From IMG/VR virus record IMGVR_UViG_3300028549_000749, positions 1 to 45,043 of that record: a stretch of 45,043 nucleotides of DNA; one strand, 5' to 3'. The stretch is from a virus. The position numbers were made by a program, and so were the translations under genes. The number at the start of each line of letters is the position of its first letter. Within the stretch, counting starts at the first letter, position 1. The notes below the pieces were generated by a model, which had not been told where the DNA came from, made no database searches, and was given only the letters and a program-made list of their open reading frames with translations. This document shows positions 9,697 through 15,185 of the stretch, one piece after another.

Positions 9697-9854
9697 CATG
9701 GTTTGCCGACGATAAGAACCTGGTGATTATTGCCGTGGTCATCCTGGGGGTGTCGATCATTTTCTCAGGTCCAATGGAGCAAGAAAAGGCAACTATAATC
9801 AATAGCCTTTTCTCCGGCCTGTTCGGCATTGCAGTGGGGAGGGCCACGAAATAA
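9693..9854 (+). CDS. Holin candidate (53 aa, two hydrophobic helices, charged C-terminus)
   Basis: Not in the ORF track (<60 aa). ATGA overlap with the endolysin stop and TAATG overlap with the next gene. Sequence: MTWFADDKNLVIIAVVILGVSIIFSGPMEQEKATIINSLFSGLFGIAVGRATK. Confidence 0.6.
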   Translation: MTWFADDKNLVIIAVVILGVSIIFSGPMEQEKATIINSLFSGLFGIAVGRATK

Positions 9855-10219
9855 TGGCTCACAGCGGAACGATTCTTTTTATGCGGACGGTTCCAGGAAA
9901 ACCGGAACTTAGGGCACTAACTTTATCTCTTGAGTGCAAGATGTGGGATGGCACAACGGATCTTATCCCGGCGGGATTTTCGTGGGACGGCAACTCTATC
10001 CCATTTATTTTTCGGGGGTTGTTCCCTCGGCATGATCACCCGCTGGCGTCAATAAAACATGACTATAGATGTAGCAAGGCAAAGAACACAGCGCAACGGG
10101 CGTGGTCTGATTTGGAGTTTCAGGCAGACGTTGGCACAACCGGGTGGTGGATCACTAAAAAGATAGGGTATATCGGGGTAAGGATCGGGGCTTTTTTAGG
10201 AATTGGCAGCAACTTTTAA
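9854..10219 (+). CDS. DUF1353-like protein
   Basis: The motif FSWDGNSIPFIFRGLFPRHDHPLASIKHDY resembles the DUF1353 core. It is the last gene of the late operon. Confidence 0.5.
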   Translation: MAHSGTILFMRTVPGKPELRALTLSLECKMWDGTTDLIPAGFSWDGNSIPFIFRGLFPRHDHPLASIKHDYRCSKAKNTAQRAWSDLEFQADVGTTGWWITKKIGYIGVRIGAFLGIGSNF

Positions 10220-10263: not shown

Positions 10264-11049
10264 TTAGGCTGTTAACTCGTTATAAAGCTCGTTGAAAGTA
10301 TCTTCATAATAATGGGGCTGAACTTCAAGTCTATTCTGGGGACTCACATCTTTTTGACCGAACTTCAATCCCTTTGTTGTCAATGCTTTAAATGTCTTCG
10401 CCCCTTTGCTTGAAGGTCTTTCTTTTTCCTCAAGATATCCTGCCACCACCATAAGGGCATTAAATACCCTAACATTTATTGGGAGATTGTTCTTTTTTAA
10501 AAGCTCAGTTGCTGAGAATACCACCCTTGCCTTTTCCACATATTCCGGGAGAAAGGAGCTGCTGATATTATTTGCCTTGTAAACCATTGAGACAATATCA
10601 ATCTTTGACGCATCCGAATAATTTAACATCCTGGCGATTGTCTCCGCTCCCATCAATTGGCATTGAACGGTTTCCGGGATTTGTGCCGGGGCTTTTACTC
10701 TCCGAGATACCCTTTCACATTCAATGAAATACTTCCTTGCAGCTCTTCCTTTGTCGTTTTTCTCAACCATGGAAAGCTCTTTTGCCATGTCAAGAGAAAG
10801 GGCATATTCTACACGGGCTTTAGAATTTGATTCCACAAAATTATGGAATTGAATAAAATCAATATCTTGTGTAAACCCATACTGCTCGATCCTGCCTTTT
10901 ATCCATGTTGAATAATCTTGACCAACTTCAAGGAAAGAATGAAGTTCCCGAGCGTCAACTGAATTGACAACCTCTCCCCCGATTGCAGCTTCTGAAACTC
11001 TTACCAGTTGATTTATTGCAGAACTTGTGCTAAAGTTTCCTACTGTCAT
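10264..11049 (-). CDS. ant: Antirepressor, AntA/AntB N-terminal domain (copy 1)
   Basis: VVNSVDARELHSFLEVGQDYSTWIKGRIEQYGFTQDIDF...MAKELSMVEKNDKGRAARKYFIECE is the AntA/AntB-type N-terminal signature. Paralogous to 25262-26044. Confidence 0.75.
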   Translation of the reverse strand: MTVGNFSTSSAINQLVRVSEAAIGGEVVNSVDARELHSFLEVGQDYSTWIKGRIEQYGFTQDIDFIQFHNFVESNSKARVEYALSLDMAKELSMVEKNDKGRAARKYFIECERVSRRVKAPAQIPETVQCQLMGAETIARMLNYSDASKIDIVSMVYKANNISSSFLPEYVEKARVVFSATELLKKNNLPINVRVFNALMVVAGYLEEKERPSSKGAKTFKALTTKGLKFGQKDVSPQNRLEVQPHYYEDTFNELYNELTA

Positions 11050-11054
11050 AATTT

Positions 11055-11258
11055 TTATCCTTGTTTAAGTTGTGACTGTTCGGGCTTGTCAGTGACCGAT
11101 TCATTGATAAGCCCTTCTTTTTTCTTGCGGTCATCATCCATAATAAAATCCTGTATTGCCGTCAATACTAATTCCGACATTGTTTTATCATGGACATGGG
11201 CAAGGCCTTTAAACTTGTAATGTAAATCTTTTGGAATCTTGATTGTTAACTGTTTCAT
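11055..11258 (-). CDS. Ribbon-helix-helix (Arc/CopG-like) DNA-binding protein
   Basis: MKQLTIKIPKDLHYKFKGLAHVHDKTMSELVLTAIQDFI shows a beta-strand plus two-helix RHH pattern. It lies directly upstream of ant, as arc-ant does in P22 immI. Confidence 0.65.
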   Translation of the reverse strand: MKQLTIKIPKDLHYKFKGLAHVHDKTMSELVLTAIQDFIMDDDRKKKEGLINESVTDKPEQSQLKQG

Positions 11259-11277
11259 TATTTGATCCTTTTTTATG

Positions 11278-11306
11278 TTTGTACTCTTTTACATTTTTAA
11301 AGTCAA
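11278..11306 (-). promoter_or_regulatory. Possible sigma70-type promoter for the RHH-ant pair
   Basis: Minus strand TTGACT-N17-TACAAA. The leader is short and barely includes the SD. Confidence 0.3.
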
Positions 11307-11410
11307 TACAGAAAATTGTCCAAGATACAGAAGTTGAAAATCGTCCCAACTATGGCAGCAATTACGCTCCCCACATAAACAACCATCACTGTTATGTCAA
11401 ATTCTCTCAT
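11303..11410 (-). CDS. Possible small hydrophobic peptide (35 aa)
   Basis: MREFDITVMVVYVGSVIAAIVGTIFNFCILDNFLY. No clear RBS, so this is weak. Confidence 0.2.
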   Translation of the reverse strand: MREFDITVMVVYVGSVIAAIVGTIFNFCILDNFLY

Positions 11411-11449
11411 TTGTAGTCTCCCATTATTTTATTCGGTCTGGTAGGTTCA

Positions 11450-11620
11450 TTATTTCTCCTTTTTCACGATCTCAAACCCATTTTTATTTAGCCATTCATG
11501 AAACTCTTTGGCAGTAAAAACACAATCCTTTGGGAGCCAAAGACATTTTATAATCCAGTTTTTTGACTGCAAGTTGATACACTTCTTGGCCTTGCAGAAC
11601 TCGAACTTTTCATATTTCAT
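11450..11620 (-). CDS. Hypothetical small protein (56 aa)
   Basis: Not in the track. ATGA overlap with the upstream gene stop. Sequence: MKYEKFEFCKAKKCINLQSKNWIIKCLWLPKDCVFTAKEFHEWLNKNGFEIVKKEK. Confidence 0.5.
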   Translation of the reverse strand: MKYEKFEFCKAKKCINLQSKNWIIKCLWLPKDCVFTAKEFHEWLNKNGFEIVKKEK

Positions 11621-11919
11621 TCTATTTCCACCATCTCGTATTTAAATTTTGATATATGCGCCCATTCTGATGTTCCAAACTCCACATATTTTCCGCTCGA
11701 AAATAGCAAGAGTATGTTTGCCGATCCTCCGATATTGATAATGCCGTCCCCAATAGCATCTTTAGGATATGGAGCTTTAGCGGAAGAGATGTAATAGTCT
11801 TTATCATGCAAGCTGTAATAACCAAGCTTCCAAGCCCCTTTAATTATACCTGTGCCAAAGATCTTCCGTGCATGTTTTAACAATGAGTATGATTTTAAGG
11901 CGTAAACTTTATCTTTCAT
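11617..11919 (-). CDS. Hypothetical protein (100 aa)
   Basis: Track ORF trimmed to the ATG preceded by ggaggaaat (MKDKVYALK...). Confidence 0.6.
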   Translation of the reverse strand: MKDKVYALKSYSLLKHARKIFGTGIIKGAWKLGYYSLHDKDYYISSAKAPYPKDAIGDGIINIGGSANILLLFSSGKYVEFGTSEWAHISKFKYEMVEIE

Positions 11920-11927
11920 ATTTCCTC

Positions 11928-12137
11928 CTACCAAAAAACTCCATAAAGTATGAATTCACCATTACAAACTGGACAGGTGACCGTTTCCTCAATAGCCGGA
12001 AGATGATCGGCCCACGGATCGGTTACCGAAAACAGTTCCTCCAACAGCTCGTTATTTTCAAGCAGGTTGACACGCTGTTTACACAATGGACAACGGACAC
12101 TAAGCTCGATTGACAGTGAAGGGGTTGCTTTTTTCAT
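11928..12137 (-). CDS. Zn-ribbon protein (69 aa)
   Basis: Track ORF trimmed to M41, which has the RBS gaggagaagatcATG. Contains CPLC...CPVC pairs. Confidence 0.55.
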   Translation of the reverse strand: MKKATPSLSIELSVRCPLCKQRVNLLENNELLEELFSVTDPWADHLPAIEETVTCPVCNGEFILYGVFW

Positions 12138-12426
12138 GATCTTCTCCTCTAAACAAAACGGGTTTCCGTAAACAGTTGGCCAAAGCCACCTCCGCAATCG
12201 CCCCTGGAGACTCTTCCCAGTCCGGCAACGCCGCCAGCAAATCACATTCAAACACATAGTTCATACTGAGCCTCATATATGCCTCATATGTCAACCCATC
12301 TTCGTAATCGAGCGGAGACAGAACTTGATACCCAAGAGCCTCGTAATGATCTTTGATCCTCTGGAGTTTTTTTTTCCAGTTGGGATCTTTTGATATTGCG
12401 CCGATGGTGTAGATCTTTAATTTCAT
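12100..12426 (-). CDS. DUF4406 / nucleoside 2-deoxyribosyltransferase-like protein
   Basis: MKLKIYTIGAIS...YMRLSMNYVFECDLLAALPDWEESPGAIAEVALA matches the DUF4406 pattern (cD..l.l.gWe.S.GA..E...A). Confidence 0.5.
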   Translation of the reverse strand: MKLKIYTIGAISKDPNWKKKLQRIKDHYEALGYQVLSPLDYEDGLTYEAYMRLSMNYVFECDLLAALPDWEESPGAIAEVALANCLRKPVLFRGEDHEKSNPFTVNRA

Positions 12427-12527
12427 TTAGTTGAGACCCCCAGGGTATCGGCTATAACGATAGCCTTTTCATCTTCGGTTACAGTCCTGATCTTCCATCC
12501 GTTCTCTTTGAAGACTTGAAAGGCCAT
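12423..12527 (-). CDS. Possible small protein (34 aa)
   Basis: Internal ATG with the RBS ggaggaatgatagaATG just after the Rha stop. ATGA overlap with the downstream gene. Confidence 0.35.
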   Translation of the reverse strand: MAFQVFKENGWKIRTVTEDEKAIVIADTLGVSTK

Positions 12528-12531
12528 TCTA

Positions 12532-13245
12532 TCATTCCTCCAATGCCGTAATGATATCAAGGCAATTCTGACGATGCCGCCTCGAATATAGTTTTTTAAG
12601 ATTGTCTTTTCGCTCCTGGTAATCCATACCAAGTTCAATCAAGGCAGTATTTACTTTTTGCATGTCGGCAATGGCTGTGATAATTGGCTCTGGCATATGG
12701 TCCCTGAAACGCTCGTTTATATCGATATCGTGAATCTCACACCATTTCTTTTTTGTAACGCCCAGGACTATTTTATAAATCAATGTATGTTCATTTGAAA
12801 AATGATGTGGCATTGTTTCTTTTCCCAGTTCATTCCTGATATTCAAAAGAGCATCGGTCATAGGCTTGCATCCAAACCTTGCTATTTCATCTGATCTTTT
12901 ACGAATAGCCTCGTTTTTTATGAACGATTCCATTTTGTTGAAAGCATCAAGGAAAGACTCCCTCCATTGTGCCGCTTTATCTCCGGTGAATTTCATTATC
13001 AAGCAAGAGAAACCATCTCGTGTCATAAGGTAATATTTGTTCTTTTTACCGGAACCATCCTTATATTCACTCAACGCAAAATTGCGTTCAGTGAATTGCT
13101 GAGATTGACCCGATTTTTCTATAGCCCTAATGACGTCGGAATGTCTTTTCCCATAACTCAAAGCAACTTCTATAGAGGAAACTCTTACTCCGCCATTAAT
13201 CACAAACTCAATTCCATCAATTACCTTGGGTAAATTCTTCATCAT
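12532..13245 (-). CDS. rha: Rha-family phage regulatory protein (copy 1)
   Basis: VRVSSIEVALSYGKRHSDVIRAIE...YYLMTRDGFSCLIMKFTGDKAAQWRESFLDAFNKME matches the Phage_pRha pattern. The start was chosen at the ATG with the RBS gaggagaaag. By eye roughly 60% identical to 18453-19163. Confidence 0.8.
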   Translation of the reverse strand: MMKNLPKVIDGIEFVINGGVRVSSIEVALSYGKRHSDVIRAIEKSGQSQQFTERNFALSEYKDGSGKKNKYYLMTRDGFSCLIMKFTGDKAAQWRESFLDAFNKMESFIKNEAIRKRSDEIARFGCKPMTDALLNIRNELGKETMPHHFSNEHTLIYKIVLGVTKKKWCEIHDIDINERFRDHMPEPIITAIADMQKVNTALIELGMDYQERKDNLKKLYSRRHRQNCLDIITALEE

Positions 13246-13375
13246 CTTTCTCCTCTTTAACATCGTCTTTGATGTGCTGTAAAATTATCTCGGTCATTGT
13301 AAGGCCCTTTTCAACTGCATAATGTTTAAACTTTTTATGCAACTCCTCGTCAATTCTCATTACGAACTTTTTCAT
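13217..13375 (-). CDS. Ribbon-helix-helix protein (52 aa) upstream of Rha copy 1
   Basis: Not in the track. MKKFVMRIDEELHKKFKHYAVEKGLTMTEIILQHIKDD... RBS aaggaggttattaaATG. Confidence 0.6.
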   Translation of the reverse strand: MKKFVMRIDEELHKKFKHYAVEKGLTMTEIILQHIKDDVKEEKDDEEFTQGN

Positions 13376-13433: not shown

Positions 13434-13450
13434 GAACTATTTCATAAAAC

Positions 13451-13479
13451 TTGACACCATGAATAAAATATGAGAAATA
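13451..13479 (+). promoter_or_regulatory. Divergent promoter of the + strand cassette
   Basis: TTGACA-N17-GAAATA with TG at the extended -10 position (tgaGAAATA). Confidence 0.45.
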
Positions 13480-13485
13480 TAAAGC

Positions 13486-13604
13486 GTGGGCGGAAATGGC
13501 CATTTCCGAGACTGGTTCCCGCAAGCCAGCCGTCCCACACTCCATACATTGCGGAAAAGAAAGACCCCATTACGGCTTGCGGAGCTGTAGATGGGGTTTT
13601 TTAT
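13486..13604 (+). ncRNA. Structured 5' leader / candidate riboswitch-like attenuator (or stand-alone sRNA)
   Basis: P1 gtggg(13486-90)/cccac(13534-38). P2 cggaaat-ggcc-atttccg (13491-13508). P3 ctggtt-cccgca-agccag (13512-29). A terminator hairpin plus T-run follows. ccgcaagcc (13519-27) is perfectly complementary to ggcttgcgg (13574-82). Confidence 0.5.
13564..13604 (+). terminator. Intrinsic terminator inside the leader, 50 nt upstream of the first cassette ORF
   Basis: accccattac / gta(g)atggggt is a 10-bp stem with one bulge, followed by ttttttatt. Confidence 0.65.
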
Positions 13605-13655
13605 TCCCGGATCAATCAGCAATAACGCTGACAGCACATATATGGAGACTCAAAA

Positions 13656-14216
13656 ATGGAAAATGGTTTCGGAACTACTGACATTCTGACTGGTAGAGGG
13701 CTTGGTTTGGCTGGATTTGGTGGATATAATTACGGCGGGCAGTATGCGGATGTAAGCTCTAATGCCGTGCGAATCAACAGAAATGAGGGCGTAACCCGTG
13801 ATGCTGCATCTTGCGTTACTGGAGTTCTTGGAGCCAGCCTTGATCGTATCTCCGCACAGAACTTTGAGGGCAGATTCAACGCTGCCATTACGTCCTTGAG
13901 AGACGGGCAGTTTCAGGGAGAACTTAGGCTCAGTGACAGCTTGGCAGCCATTAGGCTTGATGCTGCTCATCAGGCGGCGGCGGCGGCTCAGTGTTGTTGT
14001 GAACTTAAAATTGAAATGTTGAAATGCTGCTGCGAAACTCAGAAACTCGTATCCGCTGAGGGGACCGCAACCAGGGAACTTATCAACCAGAACACAATCC
14101 GGGCAGCCGTTGACCAGAACAACATCAATGCCACTGTAGGTGCAATCAATGCCAATGCCAATGCTAATGCAAACGCAATTGTCCAGGCCATTAACAGCCA
14201 GTGCAGCAAGTCTTAA
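13656..14216 (+). CDS. Orphan protein with two Cys triplets (186 aa)
   Basis: RBS ggagactcaaaaATG. Gly/aromatic-rich N-terminus, Ala-rich helix, QCCCELKIEMLKCCCETQ, and an Asn/Ala-rich C-terminus (INANANANANA). No family recognised. Confidence 0.7.
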   Translation: MENGFGTTDILTGRGLGLAGFGGYNYGGQYADVSSNAVRINRNEGVTRDAASCVTGVLGASLDRISAQNFEGRFNAAITSLRDGQFQGELRLSDSLAAIRLDAAHQAAAAAQCCCELKIEMLKCCCETQKLVSAEGTATRELINQNTIRAAVDQNNINATVGAINANANANANAIVQAINSQCSKS

Positions 14217-14226
14217 TCGTTAAACA

Positions 14227-14248
14227 GGCGGGGCCAATGCGCCCCGCC
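14227..14248 (+). other. GC-rich intercistronic hairpin
   Basis: ggcgggg...ccccgcc directly after the stop of the 186-aa ORF, with no U-tract. Confidence 0.4.
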
Positions 14249-14261
14249 ATAAAGGAATATC

Positions 14262-14528
14262 ATGACAGAACCTAAAGATTTGCTTGAAAAAGAATCAACT
14301 CCATATGACATTGGCGGTCCTAATGCAAAAAAGGGAATGGTTTTAACAGACGCTGATCTTGCAACAAAAGAGGCCGTGCAGTGGAATGGTTTTGGTTTTG
14401 TTTGCAAGCTGTGCGGGATCCCAGCGGTTTTGCATTTTATGAAGTATTGCGGCAATTGTGGCGCTGCCGTTAATGTTCAATCAAATAAAGTTAACCGTTA
14501 TCTCGAAAAAAGAGAGGAGCGATATTGA
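14262..14528 (+). CDS. Zn-ribbon protein (88 aa)
   Basis: CKLCGIPAVLHFMKYCGNCG (CxxC-x11-CxxC). RBS aaaggaatatcATG. Confidence 0.65.
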   Translation: MTEPKDLLEKESTPYDIGGPNAKKGMVLTDADLATKEAVQWNGFGFVCKLCGIPAVLHFMKYCGNCGAAVNVQSNKVNRYLEKREERY

Positions 14529-14734
14529 TGGAAGAAAAATCGGATCTTGAAATGGCAATGGCTGCACTGACCGATGAAGTTGGTGGAGTTAAGGAATATC
14601 TTGAGATTGCAGAATATTGCAAGGACCAGGAGCTTAAAGCCATCGCCATGAACATTGCAGCAGACGAAAAGAAACATGCTAATATCCTGATGCAGTTTGT
14701 GGCAAAGCATGTGCAGGCCATGCTTTCAAAATAA
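14528..14734 (+). CDS. Two-helix ferritin-like protein, encapsulated-ferritin (EncFtn)-like
   Basis: TGATG overlap with the upstream stop. In the track numbering DEVGGVKEY...QELKAIAMNIAADEKKHANILMQFV gives E18, Y25, E48, H51. This has the same spacing as the EncFtn ferroxidase residues E32/Y39/E62/H65 (recalled from the R. rubrum protein). Confidence 0.55.
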   Translation: MEEKSDLEMAMAALTDEVGGVKEYLEIAEYCKDQELKAIAMNIAADEKKHANILMQFVAKHVQAMLSK

Positions 14735-14741
14735 AAATAAA

Positions 14742-14767
14742 CCATCCCGTAATTTTGTGCGGGATGG
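14742..14767. terminator. Terminator hairpin between convergent genes
   Basis: ccatcccg-N10-cgggatgg. On the minus strand it is followed by tttatttttatttt. It closes both the long leftward early operon and the + cassette. Confidence 0.65.
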
Positions 14768-14783
14768 CTTATTAAAAAATCAA

Positions 14784-15185
14784 CTATTCATGACACGTTC
14801 TCTCTGATCTGATGATTTCGTCCGCTGTTTTTCTGCATATCTTGCATATGACATGTTCCCAAGGATGTAAATGTTTTTTGATGTGGCGAATAAAAATATC
14901 GTCTCTTGACATTATCTCAATCTCTGATATGGCCTTAAGTACTGTATCAACGGTTACCCTGTCGTAATCTTTAATATCTTCTGGCAAACTATCGTAAGGA
15001 TACATATCTGGGTGACACAGATCACAAAACTTAAAACGTTCTGGGGTCTTATAAAAACCTAATGATTTTATCTTTGGGCAGTCAACTGGTGCATGAAACC
15101 CGGCTGCCTTCTTGGTTTCCCACCATGCGTCATGGACCTTTGCTGCAATCTCTTCTTTACGTTCTGTAAGTTCTTTAATTTCCAC
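14784..15185 (-). CDS. RyR-domain protein
   Basis: IAAKVHDAWWETKKAAGFHAP...CHPDMYPYDSLPEDIKDYDRVTVDTVL resembles the bacterial/phage RyR domain (HE.W...k...GW.yG...hP.lvPy..L.e..K..dR). GTG start with the RBS ggaggcagaactGTG. Confidence 0.5.
   Translation of the reverse strand: MEIKELTERKEEIAAKVHDAWWETKKAAGFHAPVDCPKIKSLGFYKTPERFKFCDLCHPDMYPYDSLPEDIKDYDRVTVDTVLKAISEIEIMSRDDIFIRHIKKHLHPWEHVICKICRKTADEIIRSERTCHE

Follow-up and report, generated by a model that had tools for sequence, protein, structure and literature searches.

What does a phage protein do with two runs of three consecutive cysteines? This question is raised by the open reading frame (ORF) at positions 13656-14216 of the virus record IMGVR_UViG_3300028549_000749, analysed here as a whole (hereafter the window; the record is complete, measures 45,043 bp and has direct terminal repeats). 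The ORF is assigned below to a large family of phage proteins, termed CCC-rod, with a glycine-rich head, a long helical body and a near-invariant cysteine triplet. Among the functions considered, a helical bundle binding metal in the infected cell through its stacked triplets is favoured, in a tentative manner. The features of the gene and its product are as follows.

13656-14216, + strand: coding sequence (CDS) of the CCC-rod family member, 186 amino acids (aa), from the ATG at 13656 to the TAA at 14216 (ORF, Shine-Dalgarno sequence, homologs, AlphaFold)
13656-13751, + strand: Gly/aromatic-rich head, aa 1-32, predicted disordered (AlphaFold; predicted local distance difference test, pLDDT, 40-56)
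13752-14207, + strand: one continuous predicted alpha-helix, aa 33-184, about 23 nm (DSSP on both AlphaFold models)
13992-14000, + strand: first Cys triplet, aa 113-115, TGT x3 (sequence; an extra copy, present in a subfamily only)
14025-14084, + strand: family signature module CCC-E-T-Q-K ... T-R-E-L-I, aa 124-143 (profile-profile comparison, alignment)

Family membership and distribution

Judged from its homologs, the ORF is a genuine gene of a large phage-only family. A GGAG Shine-Dalgarno sequence is located 8 nucleotides (nt) 5' of the ATG at 13656. A first reading of the DNA made from the sequence only had described the product as an orphan. This description is refuted by 35 homologs found in a 90%-clustered protein database (E-values from 1e-73 to 6e-4), by the 242 clusters at E<=1e-3 (145 at E<=1e-10) retrieved with a profile of these homologs from a 50%-clustered database of 1.84 billion representatives, and by relatives in cultured phages. 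The proteins of nearly all 242 clusters are 160-250 aa long. By tblastn, the window protein is tied through the triplet region to PY100 ORF29 and eiAU gp08 (P858_08), whose relatives are found in 122 to 220 cultured phage records. These records include Hanrivervirus (haarsle, pSf-1, BASEL Bas07), Queuovirinae (CAjan, JenK1), 9NA-like phages (Sasha, PJ16), T5-like Epseptimavirus, and Aeromonas and Shewanella phages; CAjan gp21, haarsle gp47, Sasha gp07 and T5.077 are further named relatives. According to hhalign, the metagenomic and cultured branches match with a probability of 97.6% (E 2.8e-12), over 30 columns only that correspond to CCC-E-T-x-x ... A-T-R-x-L-I, and T5.077 holds the same CCC module as the window protein. 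The haarsle and CAjan proteins are about 69% identical.

Over its full length, CAjan gp21 belongs to phrog_9288 (E 1e-129). This PHROG is matched by 10 of the 36 metagenomic members and phrog_16490 by 6 of the 36 (E<=1e-3), both being labelled 'unknown function'; the window protein by itself does not score better than E 0.011 against phrog_9288. Pfam, NCBIfam and PADLOC yielded nothing informative on the rod protein, and the ESM Atlas returned viral hypothetical clusters only. The family is uncharacterised, and its named relatives in cultured phages are annotated as hypothetical, the eiAU gene among them (PMC3025963). In a literature search, the rod protein was not named in any paper, and the BASEL, Vid5, 9g and Sfin-1 papers held no virion or expression data on it. 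Two motif scans of 185,579 species genomes yielded no true member, their five CCCETQK pattern matches being chance ORFs. By these scans, the distribution is phage-only. A search of IMG/VR returned no close relatives. The zinc-ribbon partner described below was found in contig L008 only.

Two GenBank entries bear on this distribution. MG065637.1 ('Campylobacter phage A15b') contains a Hanrivervirus (coliphage) copy of the family gene, with about 97% protein identity to haarsle gp47, and MG065636.1 ('Campylobacter phage A16a') is matched only by the more distant PY100 query (48%). Both may be coliphage sequence under a Campylobacter label. As for the window virus, its large terminase is nearest to those of Stenotrophomonas, Acinetobacter and Pseudomonas siphoviruses (about 64% identity) and is also related to that of eiAU-like phages. 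Because of this kinship, a proteobacterial host is likely.

Cysteine triplets and signature module

The two triplets first noticed, 8 residues apart and encoded by TGT x3 and then TGC x3, were confirmed at aa 113-115 and aa 124-126, the second lying at 14025-14033. The same holds for the Ala-rich stretch that precedes them, the Asn/Ala-rich stretch that follows and the Gly/aromatic N-terminus. Such triplets are beyond chance. Indeed, even if its Cys content (8 of 186 residues, 4.3%) is taken as the basis, the window protein would be expected to contain about 0.015 CCC, and CCC is absent from every other six-frame ORF of at least 60 aa in the window (193 ORFs). A metallothionein was considered and rejected, as this class comprises small proteins with about 15-30% Cys in CxC/CxxC clusters.

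The triplet is kept in 162 of the 175 relatives, and of 170 aligned sequences, 166, 167 and 159 retain the Cys of its three successive columns. In the signature layout, CCC is followed by E-T-x-x and, 15 residues on, by T-R-x-L-I, and the window protein matches this layout at aa 124-143. Other conserved positions in the 170-sequence alignment are a Cys about 60 residues upstream (98/170), an E-[LF]-R-x-x-D-R motif and the head glycines (G13-R14-G15, G17, G19, G22, G23, G27). Two triplets occur in 37 of the 175 members, and the spacing between them is 11 or 18 residues, both 4 modulo 7, in 35 of these 37. A heptad-like register spans aa 94-142 of the window protein; in one of its two best heptad registers, C114 occupies position a and C124 position d.

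The end of the protein takes alternative forms within the family. Over their last 20 residues, 63 of the 175 relatives are Cys/Pro-rich, 28 His-rich, 7 both and 77 neither, and at least three His are found there in 35. An example of a Cys-rich tail, CGCGCGGG..CP, is metallothionein-like. The window protein belongs to the group with neither tail and is not among the 35: it has one His and one terminal Cys, and its C-terminus is polar, ending in ...INSQCSKS.

Predicted structure

AlphaFold models built with 36- and 126-sequence alignments agree on a disordered segment at aa 1-32 and an unbroken helix at aa 33-184. The mean pLDDT was 82 with 36 sequences and 88 with 126, and it exceeded 95 along the helix with the larger alignment. 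The earlier placement of the triplets in a predicted helix is upheld by these models. As expected of a single helix, Foldseek returned no match for the window protein in BFVD or the PDB. PDB sequence profiles gave compositional matches only (Med15, a His-tagged colicin E1 fragment), plus weak ones to influenza HA2. The latter were the only low-bias matches (E 0.005-0.01, 19 bits) and spanned the fusion peptide and first helices, and PF00509 was touched by 2 of 126 members with a best E of 0.025. A homology check set beforehand found no match to a known structural family, and the reading frame is conserved in many phages.

With a peak 19-aa hydropathy of 0.78 over its first 80 aa, the window protein has no transmembrane segment, and no N-terminal transmembrane domain. 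Neither a signal peptide, an export signal, a lipobox nor a membrane anchor was found in its sequence, and its C-terminus has no hydrophobic stretch. A transmembrane-grade head segment was found in none of the 175 metagenomic relatives (family maximum 1.33). In coliphage members, the head is glycine-zipper-like with a hydropathy of 1.1-1.65, and the head of T5.077 contains a clear hydrophobic, transmembrane-like stretch (~1.7, estimated by hand).

A self-contained gene cassette

The rod gene always comes first in a short unit with its own orientation, and the site of this unit differs among unrelated phages. The lateral tail fibre gene precedes it in CAjan, haarsle, Bas07, N5822, eiAU and one T5-like phage, and terL and portal flank it in Sasha, PJ16 and L008. 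In Shewanella phage 1/44, it is found within the head operon in the opposite orientation; in L007 and L016, it adjoins lysis (endolysin or holin) genes; in T5, it is located in the tRNA region. The T5 unit comprises three genes, T5.077-T5.079 (L034, 2065-3672); promoter P12 and a bidirectional terminator, described as efficient, are annotated around them in the T5 record. This autonomous layout, bounded by promoter and terminator, is shared by the cassettes of the window, Sasha, T5 and PY100.

Of 18 loci examined, 8 have a hairpin or terminator directly 3' of the rod gene at z<=-2.2, and 10 have one as judged by eye; these loci represent 7 lineages, the hairpin sequences are unrelated, and the Sasha record itself annotates a terminator there. 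This recurrence supports the earlier proposal that the hairpin after the stop codon of the window gene may raise rod expression over that of the downstream genes.

Because the rod gene is broken in Bas07 and in the T5-like Salmonella phage vaffelhjerte, it can be regarded as dispensable. In Bas07 (JakobBernoulli; L021, 3827-4531), a stop occurs at codon 78 and the gene is annotated as two CDS, one of them a 'putative sugar-binding protein', and in vaffelhjerte (L020, 3791-4500), it is a multi-stop pseudogene. The cassette is a self-contained, mobile and dispensable accessory. In many Epseptimavirus records, only an unannotated remnant of the triplet region is left.

The genes that follow the rod gene vary. 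Coliphage cassettes encode a His-rich protein and two others (phrog_9157, 8329, 7239). The phrog_9157 protein, product of the second gene (L010, 4582-4950; L022, 4068-4436; L002, 5283-5648), contains up to 18 His in 122 aa, with 11-18 His in its N-terminal half, and its conserved two-helix end has an ExxE ... ExxD pattern; it has no match in Pfam. In uncultured phages, small CH..(T)I.V...A..AHLxHGDxLGxC proteins are encoded directly after the rod gene (L004, 6553-6750; L008, 6343-6630; L014, 6532-6780; L015, 1555-1812), the copy of L008 having a Cys-rich N-terminus and collagen-like GKD repeats. In T5, a His/Cys/acidic N-terminal extension precedes the hydrophobic glycine-zipper and the CCC module of T5.077, T5.078 is Gln-rich, and T5.079 has four CC pairs in 64 aa. 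Finally, the protein P0104 (353 aa) is a fusion of the rod with a Lys-rich low-complexity protein that is encoded by a separate downstream gene in L017 (6400-6615) and L018 (6460-6636).

The cassette of the window

In the window, the following elements surround the rod gene.

13441-13469, + strand: candidate sigma-70-like promoter TTCATA-17-TAAAAT (predicted by consensus scan only, 9/12 positions)
13476-13655, + strand: structured leader (whole leader -65.4 kcal/mol, z -4.7)
13559-13602, + strand: terminator-like leader hairpin, GC core at 13564-13597 followed by U6 (-25.9 kcal/mol, z -4.8)
14227-14248, + strand: 8-bp GC hairpin directly 3' of the stop codon, without a U-tract (-19.6 kcal/mol, z -2.5)
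14262-14528, + strand: partner gene 1, 88 aa, C-x2-C-x11-C-x2-C, zinc-ribbon or rubredoxin-like (translation; weak zinc-ribbon Pfam matches only)
14525-14734, + strand: partner gene 2, about 68-69 aa, two-helix ferritin-like, its start overlapping the stop of partner gene 1
14736-14773, no strand assigned: hairpin flanked by A-rich and T-rich runs (-19.8 kcal/mol, z -6.1)

The leader hairpin and its U6 end 53 nt before the ATG and resemble an attenuator or a short terminated RNA ahead of the cassette; a search of the leader in Rfam gave no family match. Partner 2 scores above the Pfam cut-offs for EncFtn-like PF22277 (E 6e-8) and Rubrerythrin PF02915 (E 8e-5), and reaches the NCBIfam encapsulin-associated ferritin model at E 1.7e-6, short of the cut-off of that model. 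Homologs of both partners are found in the cassette of contig L008, that of partner 1 being 33% identical. Together, the zinc-ribbon and two-helix ferritin-like proteins (14262-14734) resemble a split 'reverse rubrerythrin', with the order swapped in L008 (6684-7174).

The hairpin at 14736-14773 is probably a bidirectional terminator serving both the cassette and the convergent minus-strand early operon, which ends with a RyR-domain gene (14784-15185). The rod gene is located between this operon end and a minus-strand block with Ant and Rha, so that the genes immediately upstream are on the opposite strand, and it shares its strand with the tail fibre and chaperone genes further upstream. Besides the regulators Ant and Rha, the block (10264-13375) encodes small zinc-ribbon proteins and a DUF4406 protein. 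Its GC content is 0.34-0.42, lower than that of its surroundings (0.45-0.51). The block, which looks like an insertion, stands between the cassette and the genes for the tail fibre and the chaperone.

A possible metal-binding helical bundle and its alternatives

Three roles had initially been suggested for the triplets. A metal-thiolate site and intermolecular cross-linking are kept as the best readings, and both are strengthened because the triplet is near-invariant, paired triplets are spaced by 11 or 18 residues (35/37), and a Cys/Pro- or His-rich tail occurs at the same position. The third, an S-acylation site, is unlikely for a protein with no membrane anchor or export signal.

Tentatively, we favour an in-register helical bundle whose stacked Cys triplets would bind metal in the infected cell. 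The hydrophobic seam of a helix of about 150 residues would have to be buried by pairing with other copies, and pairing in register is the simplest arrangement because no long-range contacts are predicted. This pairing would stack the CCC of all chains at one level, yielding rings of 6-12 thiols in which the central Cys is a core residue. As neither an export signal nor a membrane segment is present in the window protein, these thiols would stay reduced in the cytoplasm and could bind Fe, Zn, Ni or Cu there, as soft or borderline metals. The tails of relatives, whether metallothionein-like with Cys/Pro or rich in His, would add binding capacity. The hairpin after the stop codon would keep the rod protein in excess of its partners, and the rod, the rubredoxin-like zinc-ribbon and the two-helix ferritin-like protein could together constitute an iron/redox module that acts in the infected cell and not in the virion.

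Cys-rich and His-rich peptides have metal coordination in common. Cytoplasmic coordination of a metal is favoured because the Cys- and His-rich tails are interchangeable, because His/Cys-rich or ferritin-like partners recur, and because no export signal is present. His/Cys-rich segments accompany the family in three arrangements, i.e., at the C-terminus of the rod, in the N-terminal tail encoded by the next coliphage gene, and in the N-terminal extension of T5.077. Partners with metal-ligand motifs comprise the EncFtn/rubrerythrin-like and zinc-ribbon pair (window, L008), the CH...AHLxHGDxLGxC proteins, and the Cys-rich T5.079 and CAjan gp25. Besides, the function would be independent of virion structure, because the cassette is found in phages with unrelated virions.

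Several observations weigh against this bundle. The zinc-ribbon and ferritin-like pair is found downstream of the rod gene in two contigs only, the window and the unrelated L008, and the coliphage His-rich partner phrog_9157 is unrelated to the EncFtn-like partner by hhalign. The window protein itself has no His- or Cys-rich tail, and mere metal binding does not need a 150-residue rod. Moreover, the borderline-to-clear hydrophobic glycine-zipper heads of the coliphage and T5 members (1.1-1.65; ~1.7 for T5.077) point to membranes.

These same heads speak for a membrane-associated envelope rod, with the head in or on the inner membrane and a 23-nm coiled coil projecting from it, which we nevertheless hold to be doubtful. 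It is equally doubtful that the coliphage and T5 versions could cross the periplasm, be disulfide-linked there, and act in superinfection exclusion, in lysis timing or in a spanin- or fusion-like manner. From general knowledge, a rod of about 23 nm is near the width of the periplasm, and the Rz i-spanin has a like outline with intermolecular disulfides; the HA2 match is the sole low-bias one among PDB profiles, and the rod gene lies beside endolysin or holin genes in L007 and L016. However, the window protein and all 175 metagenomic relatives fall short of a transmembrane-grade segment, no signal peptide, lipobox or o-spanin-like partner was found, the HA2 likeness is weak (just 2 of 126 members touching PF00509), and carrier phages have lysis cassettes of their own (eiAU: PMC3025963). 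A classical spanin was rejected, with no N-terminal transmembrane domain in the window protein (0.78) and no lipobox signal peptide among the ORFs in or after the gene. The triplets could instead serve a fibre cross-linked by disulfides or metal, either a non-essential virion appendage or an extracellular, matrix-like material, which is unlikely. The CCC rings and Cys/Pro tails would then lock the chains covalently once released from the cell, a step that is just as unlikely. Adjacent Cys and CPxCP-like tails do recall the interchain cystine knots generally known from antibody hinges and from collagen III. The placement of the rod gene behind a lateral tail fibre gene in six of the phages named above, the Cys-rich mini-collagen neighbour in L008, and a C-terminal stretch that the partner family phrog_8329 has in common with a tail fibre PHROG point the same way, and an excess of the first gene over its partners suits a major subunit. 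Yet the cassette occurs in phages with unrelated virions and at sites remote from tail genes (the terL-portal interval of Sasha, PJ16 and L008; a head operon, in the opposite orientation, of Shewanella phage 1/44), it has its own promoter and terminators, the rod gene is a pseudogene in plaque-forming phages, and His-rich tails are incapable of covalent links. The rod protein was also not found in any virion proteome, in a literature search that did not extend to the PY100 and 9NA virion proteomes.

Two further explanations find less credence. A keratin-like scaffold or condensate self-assembling in the infected cell, with the Cys as a redox switch instead of a metal site, appears improbable. 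It would agree with the composition of the head (GRG, GGY, GFGG), the head-rod-tail layout, the low-complexity Q/N/P-rich partners (T5.078; L004, 5338-5832; L014, 5363-5872) and the weak touch of Keratin_2_head by 2 of 126 members (E 0.067). This argument is one of composition; the intermediate-filament rod signature is not matched, no filament evidence was found, and the His-rich or ferritin-like partners are left unexplained. As to the GenBank label of the relative PJ16_015 (OQ955832), which makes it a lateral tail fibre assembly chaperone, such a role is highly improbable, even though several lineages have the rod gene behind that of the lateral tail fibre. It was rejected, as no tail fibre assembly or chaperone family is matched in Pfam, PHROGs or NCBIfam. 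The PJ16 rod gene is itself not beside a fibre gene, the rod protein is conserved between haarsle and CAjan while fibres vary, and a chaperone-like gene is already present elsewhere in the window (9854-10219).

The metal-binding bundle therefore stays the favoured, if tentative, reading. If it holds, the family might represent a new class of phage metalloproteins, with a multinuclear metal-thiolate site and interchangeable His-rich, Cys-rich or ferritin-like partners, altering the metal/redox homeostasis of the infected cell; this is possible, not probable. In the same speculative vein, the proposed metalloprotein cassette would travel between unrelated virulent phages. A longer shot, drawn by analogy, is that the Gly/aromatic head and the coiled coil could form a membrane-inserting device comparable to the HA2 fusion subunit.

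The family is found in hundreds of widely used phages, among them T5, the BASEL collection and T1-like, 9g/CAjan-like and PY100-like phages, and it is common among uncultured phages too; its CCC triplet is among the most unusual invariant motifs of phage proteins, and the rod protein is apparently built for production in excess over the partner gene products. As the gene is dispensable and present in phages of E. coli K-12, knock-outs and biochemistry are easy. Whether it pointed to metal handling, envelope action or a cross-linked fibre, any outcome would provide an annotation for this entire type of cassette wherever phage genomes contain it.

Comparison with known systems

The closest counterparts are the proteins of PHROGs 9288 and 16490 and T5.077. 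Like the window protein, they have a Gly-rich head, a long helical body and the CCC-E-T-x-x ... T-R-x-L-I module, they are encoded first in an autonomous cassette, often followed by a terminator, and they are phage-only. The window protein differs from them by its second CCC, a shorter and non-hydrophobic head, the lack of a PTPPTGCC tail and other partner genes, and only about 30 columns can be aligned.

Among membrane-active proteins, lambda Rz (i-spanin) is generally known as a phage protein of similar size with a coiled-coil rod and conserved chain-linking Cys, whereas the window protein has no N-terminal transmembrane domain, lipoprotein partner, location in a lysis cassette or sequence similarity to it. 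Influenza HA2 likewise has a Gly/aromatic N-terminal segment followed by a long coiled-coil helix; unlike HA2, the window protein has no membrane anchor, no N-terminus generated by cleavage and no helical hairpin, and the likeness is an analogy at most.

The phage morons (lambda bor and lom, HK97 gp15) are similar to the cassette as self-contained, dispensable units with their own promoter and terminators and varied insertion sites. However, classical morons are found in temperate phages and act in the lysogen, whereas the CCC-rod cassette is found mostly in virulent phages.

As regards metal binding, the His-rich terminal segment of metallochaperones such as CooJ, UreE and HypB is not present in the window protein. 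CooJ, a nickel chaperone with a His-rich tail, and the designed three-stranded TRI and CoilSer Cys3 coiled coils have no sequence relationship to the family and no adjacent-Cys triplets, and the window protein, with its single His, lacks a rich tail. Nevertheless, they are known as parallel bundles that present core Cys or His-rich tails to metals, a logic that fits the alternative His-rich and Cys-rich tails of the CCC-rod family.

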